Shown one piece after another: positions 48,674 through 52,937 of a stretch of DNA of 64,000 nucleotides. The stretch comes from Promethearchaeota archaeon (GTDB taxonomy: Archaea; Asgardarchaeota; Lokiarchaeia; Sigyniarchaeales; SOKP01). The DNA is taken from NCBI GenBank assembly GCA_048940925.1, contig JBHLOC010000001.1, forward strand, positions 160,001 to 224,000, read 5' to 3'. The notes beneath the pieces were generated by a model that saw nothing but the letters and a program-made list of their open reading frames with translations, was not told where the DNA came from and made no database searches. Numbering within the stretch: position 1 is the first letter of the stretch; every line of letters starts with the position of its first letter. The position numbers were made by a program, and so were the translations under genes.

Positions 48674-49129
48674 TTAACCCGATTGACTCTTTCTTTTAGC
48701 GAACAACTCTTTAAGCTCACCCATAATTGCACCTCTTAGAGATACTGGGCTTGCGGGACGGTTTGGTGCTGGAGCCGACCCTGGACCTCCAGGTGGTGGC
48801 GGTGGGCCTCCAGGAGGGCCTCCTGGTGGACTGCTCAGCGGTGGACCCCCCGGTGGGGCACCTAATGCAGGTGATGATACAGTAGATGTTGCGGAGGTTA
48901 CTGGACCACCTGCTTTAAGTGATGTAAGATCATTATTTATAGTTGTTAATTGATTTTGCAGATTAGTTACCCTTGTATTGACAGTTTGAAGACTTTGATC
49001 GACTAAATCAGAGATTTTTAGCACAATTTGCATTATTTTTTCAACAATATCTCCAAAATCATTGAGTTTTTCCTCTAGCGGAGCTTTTCGAGTAGTCTCT
49101 AAGAAGGAAGCAAATTCTTCTGCACACAT
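48674..49129 (-). CDS. Coiled-coil + polyproline + C-terminal amphipathic helix protein (WAVE/WASH-like layout)
   Basis: Helical N-terminus with RVTNLQNQL; PPGGPPGGPPPPPGGP; SLRGAIMGELKELF. Confidence 0.75.
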   Translation of the reverse strand: MCAEEFASFLETTRKAPLEEKLNDFGDIVEKIMQIVLKISDLVDQSLQTVNTRVTNLQNQLTTINNDLTSLKAGGPVTSATSTVSSPALGAPPGGPPLSSPPGGPPGGPPPPPGGPGSAPAPNRPASPVSLRGAIMGELKELFAKRKSQSG

Positions 49130-49259: not shown

Positions 49260-49895
49260 CTAACTTAACTCATCAATAGAATCTTTTAATTTAAGCCATA
49301 AGGTATTTATTTCATCTCTTACTTCAATAAATTGTGTTATTTTTTTTATTAAGATATCACGGGCACGATCAAAATCTCGTTGAACATCATTTAACTCTTG
49401 GTCAAGAATGTTTAACTTATCTCCATCAATTAATTTATTTTTTGCTTTTTCAACATTTAAAGCTTTTTTTATTATTATTGATCTTTTACTCGCCAAATCA
49501 GATAGAGCATTGATAAATTCCTCTTTTTTTTCTACCAAATATTCTTTTTGAACAGCTATATCCTTAATTGAATTCAAATATTTATTATTAGCTTTAATAA
49601 ATTCATCATTTTTATGAATGATATCTTGATATAATTTAACTTCTTCATCTTTAATATTAGATCTATGTTCACGAGCTAAAGTTTGCATTTGTTTTAAAAC
49701 ATCTCTGAAGGTTCTATTTAGCATTTCTCTTGCATTATTTGTTTTAGTGATATGTTCCGCATATCTTTTTTGAGTACCAATTAAATTGATCTGTTCTTTA
49801 GCCAATTTTTTAAATTGAGACACTAATTCTTTTTCCATTTTAGCTAGTTCTAATTCATCTTCATGAGTAATAATAGGACTCATTATAAACCCCAT
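49260..49895 (-). CDS. All-helical protein, BAR-domain-like
   Basis: About 210 aa of three long helices; DKL..LDQE..VQRDFDRARDILIKKITQF resembles the third helix of SNX-BAR proteins. Confidence 0.55.
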   Translation of the reverse strand: MGFIMSPIITHEDELELAKMEKELVSQFKKLAKEQINLIGTQKRYAEHITKTNNAREMLNRTFRDVLKQMQTLAREHRSNIKDEEVKLYQDIIHKNDEFIKANNKYLNSIKDIAVQKEYLVEKKEEFINALSDLASKRSIIIKKALNVEKAKNKLIDGDKLNILDQELNDVQRDFDRARDILIKKITQFIEVRDEINTLWLKLKDSIDELS

Positions 49896-49975: not shown

Positions 49976-51010
49976 TTATACAGAGAAAAGTGAAGTTAAA
50001 ATATTATCTCTATAATTTGCTTTTATAATTTTAACCTTGATGTTTTTTCCAATTAATCTATTAGGATTAGATATTGATTTACTTAAAAGTATTTTCACCC
50101 CAAAATTATCATTTATTTTTCCAATAAATTCATTTTTCCAACGTCCTTTTGAGATCACAGTTAAATTTATCATTTCATTTTTTTCTAATTTTGTAGAAAT
50201 ATCACTTTTACGTCTATGAATACCAAAATCCTTTGGACCAAGTTTCAGTTTTATATTATATTTTTTTTCTAAATTGGTTAATTGAGTATAGAAATAAGCC
50301 CAACTTTTAGGTTGTATTTTTTTCAATTTTCTACCAGTTTTATAAATTAAATATTTTTGTATACCAATTTGAATTTTATTATCAGAATAACCTTTCTTTC
50401 TTAAATTAATTATAAACTTAATTACATCTTCGATATCTTGATCATTTTCTCCAGGAAACCAGACTGGAGCAATAAGTAAATCAATATTAGTATTCAATAG
50501 AAAATGTAAATTTTCTATGAGATTATTAATATTATAATCATGACAATTACTTAAATAACTGGATTTTTCTTGATTTAAAGAATTAAGACTAACATTTATT
50601 CGAGTTAAATGAACTCTTTCAAGATTTTCAATAACTTCTTTTTTTAGTAATAATCCATTTGTTTGCATTGAAATAATTTCAATTCCTTTTATTTTCCAGA
50701 GATAATCGATCAATTCAAACAATTTAGGATAAAGGAGAATTTCACCATAAGGAGCTAAATGAATTTCAATCTTGTATTTTCCTTTAATTTTAACTATTTC
50801 TTTTACTTTTTCTATTATATACTCTGGATCAACAATAAAATTAGTGAGATAATCTCCAGCTCTCACAAAACAGTATTTACATTTCAAATTACATAAAGTT
50901 AGAGGTTTGAGTTCAATAACATTTGTACCCCTATCAATAACGCCAATAAAATCTATGCCATATAAAGGGATTTGTGACTTTTTATCCACATAAATTATTT
51001 CAGGTTTCAT
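49976..51010 (-). CDS. Radical SAM protein with TRAM-like C-terminus
   Basis: CNLKCKYC, DRGTNVIE, MQTNG. Confidence 0.85.
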   Translation of the reverse strand: MKPEIIYVDKKSQIPLYGIDFIGVIDRGTNVIELKPLTLCNLKCKYCFVRAGDYLTNFIVDPEYIIEKVKEIVKIKGKYKIEIHLAPYGEILLYPKLFELIDYLWKIKGIEIISMQTNGLLLKKEVIENLERVHLTRINVSLNSLNQEKSSYLSNCHDYNINNLIENLHFLLNTNIDLLIAPVWFPGENDQDIEDVIKFIINLRKKGYSDNKIQIGIQKYLIYKTGRKLKKIQPKSWAYFYTQLTNLEKKYNIKLKLGPKDFGIHRRKSDISTKLEKNEMINLTVISKGRWKNEFIGKINDNFGVKILLSKSISNPNRLIGKNIKVKIIKANYRDNILTSLFSV

Positions 51011-52089
51011 ATCCTATCAAGCTTATATCGTAATATTCCTACTATTGATCCCAGATTTACTAATTGTTCTCCAGGGATATTTTCTGTACTCATGATGTTT
51101 ACTGAACCTCCAGAATTTTCCACATTGGTTATAATTTCTTCGATTTTCAGCTTTTGTTCCTTATCTGTACCTCGAATCAATATATCTGCTATTAAAAGAT
51201 GTTTAATTGCGCCTCGTTCTGATGCTTTTGAAACTTCGTTAAAACCAATAACCACTAAATCAGCGTCTTCCCCAAACTGAGAAAGAACCTTTTCAACTAG
51301 GTGTGCTTCTTGTAAAATTTTTGCTCTTTTTTTAATGGTAGCTAATTCTTTTGATTTTAAAGTCTCTATTATAGCACTTTCTGTTCCCGAACTTGCATGA
51401 AAAATTTTTATTTTGTTCTTATAAGTTGTAGTGGCTGAATTTTTTATATAATTAATAAAATGGTTTTTTGTATTTCCAGGTCCACATATTATTATCAAAT
51501 TTATATCATAAGTCTCTAATTTTTCTTTTAAAATTCTCTCTATATCTCTAAAAAACTCGATTAATGCCTTATTTCTATAGGTTTGTTTGTATCTTTTACC
51601 AGGAATATTCTTTTTTATAGTTGCAACCCTTTCATGTCGAAAGTTAGTTATAAGAGCTAATGTTGCTAACCCAGTTTCAATGGCAATAATAAAAATAATA
51701 AAATTGCTTTCAAATTTTGAGCTTTCTTTCAATCGTCTTATCTCATGATTTAACCACTTTTCTTTTATTATAGAAATTATATGGTTTGTTTCTATATTAA
51801 ATGTGTGATAAGTGCCGTAACTAACAAAATCTTCAGGACCTTCTAATATTCTTCCTTTTATTCTTAACCGATTTGAGAACTCATGAAAAGAAGTACTTTC
51901 AACTTTTAATTTTAATCTCATTATTTTACGATCTCCCTTAGTACCTTCTTTAAGAACAACTCTTCTTTGAGTTATAGATGAGACTTCGTCATCTTTACTA
52001 ATTACATTATATAGCGTCCACAAGTCGTTAAGACTTTCAGTTTGAACTGTAATTTCACTCCGTTTTTGATTGATACTTAAAATTTTCAA
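51007..52089 (-). CDS. pelA: mRNA surveillance protein pelota
   Basis: NDLWTLYN, FSNRLRIKG, YHT, IPGKR, GPG, GILRY. Confidence 0.93.
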   Translation of the reverse strand: MKILSINQKRSEITVQTESLNDLWTLYNVISKDDEVSSITQRRVVLKEGTKGDRKIMRLKLKVESTSFHEFSNRLRIKGRILEGPEDFVSYGTYHTFNIETNHIISIIKEKWLNHEIRRLKESSKFESNFIIFIIAIETGLATLALITNFRHERVATIKKNIPGKRYKQTYRNKALIEFFRDIERILKEKLETYDINLIIICGPGNTKNHFINYIKNSATTTYKNKIKIFHASSGTESAIIETLKSKELATIKKRAKILQEAHLVEKVLSQFGEDADLVVIGFNEVSKASERGAIKHLLIADILIRGTDKEQKLKIEEIITNVENSGGSVNIMSTENIPGEQLVNLGSIVGILRYKLDRI

Positions 52090-52230
52090 AACTTGAATCT
52101 AACTCTTAAGGAGATACTTTTACTTAAAATTAATATACAGTATAAGATAAGCTTAATTTTATATTAAATCCATAAAAAATAAATTAAAATAAATAAAAAA
52201 AGAGAAACATAATCATTAAAAACAAAATTT

Positions 52231-52386
52231 TTAGTCTTTTGCCCCTAAAGCTTCTTTAACTTTCTCTAATTCTTCCATGCGTTTCTTCTTCTCTTCCTCT
52301 CTCTTTCTTAGCTCTTCTTCATCAACTTTCTGAAGTGAAACACCTTTTTTAATTTCATCTTGAAGTTCTTTATCTATTGGAGTCAT
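52231..52386 (-). CDS. Unannotated 51-aa WH2-like peptide
   Basis: MTPIDKELQDEIKKGVSLQKVDEEELRKREEEKKKRMEELEKVKEALGAKD; ATG..TAA, GGTG upstream, T-tract downstream. Confidence 0.75.
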   Translation of the reverse strand: MTPIDKELQDEIKKGVSLQKVDEEELRKREEEKKKRMEELEKVKEALGAKD

Positions 52387-52460
52387 TTTAATTTAACACC
52401 ATTTCTTTTATATTAATGTAAAAAAATTAATTTTAATACTTACAGTTATTATAATAGAAT

Positions 52461-52937
52461 TTATTTATAAGTTTTAGTTTGTAGAGAGACCATATTCAAT
52501 TCCATTAAAAATGCAGATTCTCCCGATTGATAATAATTTTCTAATATTTCTGGATTTTTTTTGAATTTAAATTTTTCATACAATTTAATCGCAATGTTAT
52601 TATTAACTTGAACGTTTAAAATTACTTTTGTTATTTCATTTAATTTTCTTATATATTCTATTGCTTTTTGTAGAAGCAATGTCCCGTATCCTCTTTTTTG
52701 AAAATCTGGATTAATGAGAAAGTTAACTATATTCGCTTTGTCTTTATTTTCTTTTATAACAACAATAAAACCGACTATTTTCTTTCTAAATTTACCGATC
52801 ACTAATTTTAGAAACAAAAAATTATTAGATATCAAATTGCTCAATAAATCCTTAGAAAAGGCATTTACTCCAAACACACTTTGTTCAAGCTGATATATCT
52901 TCTTTAAATCCCGAAATTTCACCTTTCTAATTTTCAT
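52461..52937 (-). CDS. rimI: RimI-like GNAT N-acetyltransferase
   Basis: FQKRGYGTLLL, NNIAIKLYEK, NYY..GESAFLM. Confidence 0.85.
   Translation of the reverse strand: MKIRKVKFRDLKKIYQLEQSVFGVNAFSKDLLSNLISNNFLFLKLVIGKFRKKIVGFIVVIKENKDKANIVNFLINPDFQKRGYGTLLLQKAIEYIRKLNEITKVILNVQVNNNIAIKLYEKFKFKKNPEILENYYQSGESAFLMELNMVSLQTKTYK

Follow-up and report, generated by a model that had tools for sequence, protein, structure and literature searches.

A 51-codon gene lies between the GNAT and Pelota genes

The window, that is, the whole 64,000-nt stretch of archaeal DNA analysed here, contains a small protein-coding gene at 52231..52386 on the minus strand (stop codon included), assigned as coding on the basis of its conservation and of an excess of synonymous differences. 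As quoted in the first-pass annotation, a 51-aa peptide is encoded at this position; its ORF runs over 51 codons from ATG to TAA (52386 to 52231), and the translation, MTPIDKELQDEIKKGVSLQKVDEEELRKREEEKKKRMEELEKVKEALGAKD, is referred to below as P0001. The gene is placed between a GNAT acetyltransferase gene (52461-52937) and the Pelota gene (51007-52089), and all three are on the minus strand. Reading the 74 nt spacer that follows the GNAT stop codon (52387..52460, minus strand), we found a T7 run at 52420-52426, a TATA-like element, TTAATATAAAAG, at 52405-52416, and a GGTG at 52397-52400, 10 nt before the ATG, which represent a possible promoter and ribosome-binding site of its own. The spacer between P0001 and Pelota is 141 nt long, and its start, directly 3′ of the P0001 stop codon, carries four oligo-T tracts (T4, T5, T7, and T6; 52174..52227, minus strand) that precede the Pelota gene and resemble archaeal terminators. 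Together, the T7, TATA-like and GGTG elements upstream and the oligo-T tracts downstream make an independent P0001 transcription unit plausible.

Further genes of the same strand were noted in the window. A 151-aa protein encoded at 48674-49129 combines a coiled coil at its N terminus with a polyproline tract, GGPPLSSPPGGPPGGPPPPPGGP, and, at its C terminus, a basic amphipathic helix, LRGAIMGELKELFAKRK, a layout that resembles profilin-binding, actin-assembly factors, and a 211-aa all-helical protein without a Pfam match is encoded at 49260-49895.

P0001 is a strongly constrained gene, found in one order of Lokiarchaeia

P0001 is a true gene and is strongly constrained. In comparisons with seven congeners, 5-18 codons differed synonymously only and 4-8 codons by replacement, with the differences concentrated at third positions, and the amino-acid identity of P0001 was 84-92% versus 70-85% for the flanking Pelota and 56-75% for the flanking GNAT protein. 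A word-indexed search retrieved 226 homologues of 49-51 aa; identity was 75-96% among the 120 homologues listed, all of which came from Asgard metagenome bins, and a homologue was present in 23 of the 24 genomes of the genus. The supposition that small size had hidden this gene from annotation did not hold, as the exact protein and many homologues are already in gene-call collections, and NCBI lists the homologues as 'hypothetical protein'.

The NCBI labels of near-identical homologues (Thor-, Hod-, Hermod-, and Heimdall-) suggested an Asgard-wide spread, but this was not borne out when 301 genomes of the phylum were sampled. In this sample the small gene was detected in 63 of 68 genomes of P0001's own family (f1) and in all seven genomes of a second family (f2), and the other Asgard families sampled yielded none (for example 0/28, 0/19, and 0/21). 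A separate whole-genome search located it in two further families of the same order (f3 and f4). Five weak partial matches in family f11 belonged to a different, longer protein. The P0001 family was thus found only in its own order of Lokiarchaeia among the genomes sampled, which is the outcome of the search across Asgard that had been proposed earlier in the form of a tblastn.

Family f1 and genus g5 of f2 share the gene order GNAT, small gene, Pelota, radical SAM, and the Pelota/GNAT adjacency is gone in other genera (G033, G029, and G028). This gene order, together with a weak profile match to aEF-1beta, would fit a small protein linked to translation or ribosome rescue and tied to the adjacent Pelota or GNAT. 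We consider this reading very improbable, given that the adjacency is lost in those genera, that the small gene has T-tract and TATA-like flanks of its own, and that neither the fusions nor the pull-down described below give any pointer to translation.

None of the conserved neighbours, which are GNAT, Pelota, and radical SAM genes, is cytoskeletal, which counts against a role in actin regulation, and no actin, profilin or gelsolin gene was found in the gene neighbourhoods of the small gene or of its tandem and profilin-fused relatives. P0001's genome has five actin-family genes, all elsewhere, the nearest being ~115 kb off on the same contig. The BAR-like/polyproline pair that the first-pass annotation had placed about 3 kb away does lie 2.3-3.1 kb from P0001 in the window, but it is not near the small gene in f2, where the adjacency to Pelota persists. 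A functional cluster of P0001 with this pair was therefore rejected as evidence.

P0001 is predicted to fold as a helix, a WH2-like segment and a long charged helix

AlphaFold2 prediction from a 41-sequence alignment gave a helix at residues 6-14, a non-helical stretch at 15-22 and a second helix at 23-49, with a pLDDT of about 90. In combination with the column statistics, this places a putative N-terminal amphipathic helix at residues 4-14 (52345..52377, minus strand), a non-helical segment like the 'LKKV' of WH2 domains, G-V-S-L-Q-K-V, at residues 15-21 (52324..52344, minus strand; also supported by alignment), and a long charged helix rich in E, K and R at residues 23-49 (52240..52320, minus strand). 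The charged helix that had been postulated to follow the WH2-like motif is therefore reproduced by the model as helix, loop, helix. Structure searches with the P0001 model were uninformative because it is so small: with Foldseek, the 51-aa model matched nothing in the PDB, and VIA-align wide gave generic long-helix matches only (Z≤4.1). In an ESM Atlas feature search, the first annotated neighbour of P0001 was a Thymosin cluster (score 0.86), which serves as a lead only.

The family, whose single, tandem and fused forms all occur, follows the pattern h-x3-L-x3-I-x2-G-x2-L-x-K-V-D-x3-L-x2-R-E-E-E-K-K-K-R-x-E-E-L. P0001 fits this pattern and is the top-scoring member (87 bits). Across 41 diverse singletons, G15, L18, R36, and E39 are invariant, and K20, E32, K33, K35, and L40 occur in at least 90% (K20 in 90%). 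Positions 4, 8, 12, 21, 26, 40, 43, and 47 are hydrophobic, with hydrophobic shares of 88% at L8, 100% at I12 and 93% at V21. In the second helix, the invariant R36 and E39 are accompanied by the conserved L40, V43, and L47, and the strongest conservation of the whole protein falls in residues 29-40 (REEEKKKRxEEL).

P0001 could be a small charged-helix adaptor unrelated to actin, in which the conserved unit is the E/K/R helix, acting as a single alpha-helix or docking onto another conserved partner, and the resemblance of the front to WH2 is a coincidence of amphipathic helix and turn. The concentration of conservation in residues 29-40 is what such an adaptor would show; against it, conservation at G15, L18, and K20 and at hydrophobic positions 8, 12, and 21 equals that of the second helix. 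On this and the evidence below, we regard the adaptor reading as unlikely.

The front half of P0001 resembles WH2 domains below the Pfam threshold

The match to the WH2 profile anticipated by the first-pass annotation was not obtained. A Pfam scan of P0001 gave no WH2 or Thymosin match even at E≤10, and the Pfam WH2 HMM matched nothing in the six-frame translation of P0001's genome. Among the 41 family members, WH2 (PF02205, gathering cut-off 23.1 bits) was matched by three, the best at 16.5 bits (E 0.007) and below the cut-off. In P0139, P0137, and P0171, which carry a canonical LKKV, WH2 was the top Pfam family at 16.5-13.4 bits, and the tandem-module proteins scored 12.8-13.6 bits, again below the cut-off. 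By Pfam's own cut-off, P0001 is outside WH2, a point in favour of the adaptor.

Searches in the other direction pointed to WH2 repeatedly. Against 177,635 PDB sequences, a profile of the family (A1) retrieved the N-WASP tandem-WH2 construct 3m3n_W first (E 7.7e-4), N-WASP 2vcp_D third and MIM 2d1k_C fourth, and the top three matches of a broader profile (A2) were 3m3n_W (a triple repeat, E 3.7e-5), 2vcp_D (0.019) and Spire 3mn7_S (0.041); WH2 constructs other than 3m3n_W had E values of 0.019-0.33 in these searches. With the N-terminal half alone, the best natural match in the PDB was still N-WASP. Supportively, among 1.84 billion proteins A1 retrieved P0173, a protein from a bacterial contig (E 9.2e-4), in which Pfam scores four WH2 copies (E 3.4e-23). 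Reverse searches with Pfam WH2 returned to the family as well: its sole match in genome G032 was a module of the tandem protein, and the third of its four matches in G038 was a tandem-protein module (13.6 bits). In G170 and G271, the sole Pfam WH2 match was the 'AELKASILTGVSLKKVEKEE' motif, which A2 had already found. This near-canonical WH2-like motif, AELKASILTGVSLKKVEKEE, lies inside a helical protein of 258-311 aa without a Pfam family in f11 (L020:754-1689 and L021:949-1725, both plus strand).

Two other Pfam-scale matches were judged compositional or chance. DUF3006 was matched by 14 of the 41 members (12-13 bits where inspected, best E 4e-4, cut-off 32.3), and the family profiles matched aEF-1beta. 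These weak matches are similar in size to those with WH2, as the adaptor reading would have it. Because single-domain scores to WH2, at ~14 bits, are no better than the probably chance match to aEF-1beta, the case for WH2 rests on the pattern of matches, whose specificity and reciprocity speak against the adaptor. The proposed WH2 pattern thus stands as a specific, reciprocal likeness in the PDB and reverse Pfam matches, but P0001 itself is without a Pfam WH2 match. These alignments suggest that the front half of P0001 resembles WH2/beta-thymosin peptides, with every match sub-threshold, and as only about 17 residues are involved, homology to WH2 is not separable from convergence.

The module recurs in tandem proteins and behind a profilin domain

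A HMMER search with a profile of 24 close homologues against the 1.84 billion representatives gave 53 matches at E≤1e-3, which fell into five groups: (a) many singletons of 47-60 aa with the pattern ..ELK.EI..G..L.KVD..EL.KREEEKKKR.EEL.K....L; (b) proteins of ~490 aa in which about ten modules repeat every 44-46 residues; (c) proteins of 250-390 aa in which one to four modules lie between an N-terminal domain and a C-terminal domain of ~55 aa; (d) leucine-rich repeats combined with the module and a ribbon-helix-helix; and (e) two non-archaeal proteins bearing WH2-type repeats. In a profile search for longer homologues, charged low-complexity proteins crowded the results and left nothing usable.

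Several lines of evidence indicate that the N-terminal domain of group (c) is, by modelling and profile comparison, a profilin. Its top PDB sequence matches were the Asgard profilins 5zzb, 5yed, and 5zza (E 1e-4 to 3e-4), and one member, P0193, passes Pfam Profilin (25.6 bits versus a cut-off of 25). The AlphaFold model of the fusion has a pLDDT of 82-91 over residues 1-120, and its best Foldseek match was the Odin profilin/actin structure 5zza_P (E 6e-10, TM 0.89, rmsd 1.5 Å), followed by Loki and then eukaryotic profilins. The ~45-aa module follows the profilin domain in about 35 proteins, some of them in genomes of P0001's own family; it matches P0001 with E 3.5e-7, and the last residue of its motif is Pro (LEKPD). 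A unit fused to a true profilin fold argues against an adaptor unrelated to actin. The leucine-rich-repeat and ribbon-helix-helix fusions of group (d) would fit a general adaptor and count against the actin reading, as does the Pro that ends the motif in the profilin fusions.

Related genes were also noted in passing. P0001's genome has a second carrier of the module, a 423-aa protein on contig C78 (L010:976-2247, plus strand) that joins leucine-rich repeats to a single divergent module, GIYLARPNEEEIEVRKVERLKRIEEL, and a tail resembling a ribbon-helix-helix; P0167 and P0162 are related to it. The canonical Loki profilin (136 aa) is at L032:1378-1788. Two profilin-like paralogues of 211 and 221 aa (L028:1273-1908 on contig C31 and L030:1249-1914 on contig C29, both minus strand) share the C-terminal extension DPxLKxEhxxFLxWIxDxxGLAGYIxYxLQQN. 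On contig C7, a 416-aa protein (L029:1453-2703, plus strand) is encoded directly downstream of a Lokiactin paralogue (L029:125-1126); its N-terminal profilin-like domain is 36% identical to a profilin of the fusion family, and its C-terminal part is by eye like a TrmB-type winged helix. Distant homologues of the profilin-fusion family carry PF01978. A profilin fold fused to a DNA-binding domain beside actin is unusual.

A tandem relative co-purifies with Lokiactin in a published pull-down

The closed genome G324 (6,035,313 bp), which we take to be that of Lokiarchaeum ossiferum B35, encodes a 377-aa Lokiactin, a 488-aa tandem protein at 4.726 Mb and an orthologue of the small protein. The Lokiactin has a monoisotopic mass of 42.747 kDa, equal to the 42.75 kDa of GNAMCCOK_03343, which is named Actin in Table 3 of a published study (bioRxiv 10.1101/2025.11.30.690169); this agreement calibrates the mapping to the locus tags. 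The tandem protein, at 56.414 kDa, corresponds to GNAMCCOK_04085 (56.41 kDa), whose locus number is about where gene order would put it, and the small orthologue, as a 69-aa model with a GTG start (8.239 kDa), fits GNAMCCOK_02436 (8.24 kDa in the table); both assignments are by mass to 0.01 kDa and gene order only.

In the sheet 'CoIP Lokiactin' of Supplementary Table 2 of that study, GNAMCCOK_04085 was identified by 44 peptides with 70.5% coverage and had a log2 actin/IgG ratio of 4.53 (adjusted p 0.0021), alongside log2 values of 4.44 for actin, 3.97 for the gelsolin 2DGel1, 1.34 for Arf and 1.07 for profilin 2 (bioRxiv 10.1101/2025.11.30.690169). The data fit a co-purification of the G324 tandem relative with Lokiactin at an enrichment as strong as that of actin itself, in a formaldehyde-cross-linked co-IP in which the contact may be indirect. 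This enrichment again argues against an adaptor without relation to actin. The text of the study (bioRxiv 10.1101/2025.11.30.690169) does not mention the tandem protein. In the same sheet, several proteins are enriched above actin and undiscussed in the text, among them GNAMCCOK_00333 (37.5 kDa, log2 9.2), GNAMCCOK_02751 (67 kDa, 7.7), GNAMCCOK_04250 (20.6 kDa, 5.1) and GNAMCCOK_04085 (56.41 kDa, 4.5), the last being the one assigned here.

The small orthologue behaved differently from the tandem form. GNAMCCOK_02436 was detected in every one of the 16 proteomes, where its mean log2 of 18.41 exceeded that of profilin 2, and was not significantly enriched in the Lokiactin co-IP (log2 0.57, adjusted p 0.105; bioRxiv 10.1101/2025.11.30.690169), a result that favours the adaptor. 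Its motif, EIEQHDKSAMKHV, is atypical and is without G15 or L18.

That the tandem and not the single form comes down with Lokiactin is also what would be seen if the module acted on filaments and not on monomers, one module per subunit along a strand in the manner of nebulin or of tandem-WH2 nucleators; the free 51-mer would then be a side-binder, a stabiliser or a competitor of the tandem protein instead of a sequestering peptide. About ten copies per protein at a period of 44-46 residues would suit this arrangement, and the long rigid helix of each module would be compatible with a subunit-length spacer. However, no other member of the family is as conserved or as widespread as the single form, and WH2-type motifs usually favour monomers or barbed ends. 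We therefore rate a filament-directed module as rather improbable.

P0001 as the free form of a putative actin-directed module

Relatives of P0001 carry the same unit either fused to a profilin or in tandem in a protein that co-purifies with actin, and P0001 is therefore a good candidate for a hitherto undescribed archaeal actin regulator. The reading that we put forward, with about even confidence, is that one Lokiarchaeia order has an actin-directed module, of which P0001 is the free form and which putatively grips actin in a WH2-like manner. The idea of a WH2-like actin peptide, already raised in the first-pass annotation, draws on the profilin fusion and on the tandem relative found with Lokiactin, but the family stays below the Pfam cut-off, the second helix that WH2 domains lack is the better conserved part, and the small orthologue was not significantly enriched with actin.

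In the proposed mechanism, residues 4-14 of P0001 would form the amphipathic helix, which G15 would break, and L18-x-K20-V21 would lie on the actin surface like the LKK(T/V) of WH2 domains. The helix of residues 23-49, with R36, E39, L40, V43, and L47, would extend up the face of actin like the C-terminal helix of a beta-thymosin or else act as a rigid spacer. The free 51-mer might thereby hold Lokiactin monomers or hand them over, with profilin and gelsolin competing for the same face. The site that WH2 domains occupy on actin is the cleft formed by subdomains 1 and 3. The best Lokiactin of P0001's genome retains the cleft segments LSLYASGRTTG, EGF, and WIGGSILSSLKTFxxMW, which we take, after Dominguez/Chereau, to be the residues lining the WH2-binding cleft of eukaryotic actin, and its acidic pair at positions 24/25 is E-D. 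Sequestering of monomers in the way of beta-thymosin, the activity first suggested for this peptide, would by analogy be one of several possible outcomes.

More tentatively, the whole family could be a WH2/beta-thymosin-type module specific to this order, homologous or convergent, which would serve as an abundant free 50-mer that buffers monomers, as the C-terminal arm of a profilin paralogue, and as a ten-fold tandem that templates or decorates filaments.

In the literature searched, WH2-like elements of Asgard archaea appear only as four-residue gelsolin linkers, Lokiactin is nowhere paired with 'WH2-like', and no free protein of the WH2/thymosin type, fusion of profilin with WH2 or tandem array is described from Asgard archaea. 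If the proposal is true, these proteins would be a third class of Asgard actin regulators besides profilins and gelsolins, and a WH2/thymosin-like module in three architectures would broaden the archaeal toolkit, one of these architectures, the tandem, being already visible as an uncommented top match in the published Lokiactin pull-down. A further issue on which the family touches is whether monomer binders of the WH2 type arose a single time or several times. Since the P0001 family was found only in one order among the genomes sampled, it is alone no evidence that WH2 predates eukaryotes, and that claim is not supported by its spread. P0001 would offer a cheap test system in the form of a 51-residue synthetic peptide with Lokiactin or rabbit actin.

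Comparison with known actin-binding systems

WH2 domains (PF02205; N-WASP, WAVE, MIM, WIP, and Spire) have in common with P0001 a short amphipathic helix, a turn with a Gly, and L-x-K-V at equal spacing, as seen when N-WASP LLDQIRQGIQLKKVEQ is aligned with P0001 ELQDEIKKGVSLQKVDE; residues 15-21 of P0001 align to 'QGIQLKKV' of N-WASP and 'RGVKLKKT' of MIM. Both groups also occur singly, in tandem and beside profilin-related machinery. The P0001 family differs in its obligatory and highly conserved second helix (REEEKKKRxEEL), which WH2 is without, and in being archaeal, found only in its own order among the genomes sampled, and below the Pfam cut-off.

Beta-thymosins (PF01290; thymosin beta-4, ciboulot, and actobindin) are, like P0001, free peptides of ~45-50 residues with an N-terminal helix, an LKKT-type segment and a C-terminal helix, and both families have tandem-repeat relatives. 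In contrast to beta-thymosins, P0001 has a much longer (27 residues) and highly charged C-terminal helix and a linker of the short WASP/WAVE type, and Pfam Thymosin was absent for P0001 and from the families most matched by the 41 members.

Asgard gelsolins have central WH2-like linkers (LRRV, LKHV, and LVDV/LKDV) that contact actin in crystal structures (PMC7444086, PMC9433394, bioRxiv 10.1101/2025.11.30.690169). These are four-residue motifs inside gelsolin-domain proteins and are unrelated in sequence to the P0001 family, whereas P0001 is a free module with a helix of its own. Tandem-WH2 nucleators (Spire, Cordon-bleu, VopL/VopF, and Legionella RavH) are like the ~490-aa relatives in stringing modules together. 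This comparison applies to those relatives and not to P0001 itself; they differ from the nucleators in having about ten repeats spaced regularly at 44-46 aa, each unit with a helical spacer inside.

Another small archaeal protein, Arcadin-2, reportedly acts on crenactin via a short helix in a hydrophobic groove. Arcadin-2 of Crenarchaeota is described as a regulator of crenactin (Izore et al. 2016, as cited in PMC12050087); it belongs to another phylum and another actin than P0001, and the two are set side by side by description alone. Functional parallels are reportedly found in the trypanosomatid profilins with a WH2-like insert (PMC10907219) and in Legionella RavH (PMC13481308).
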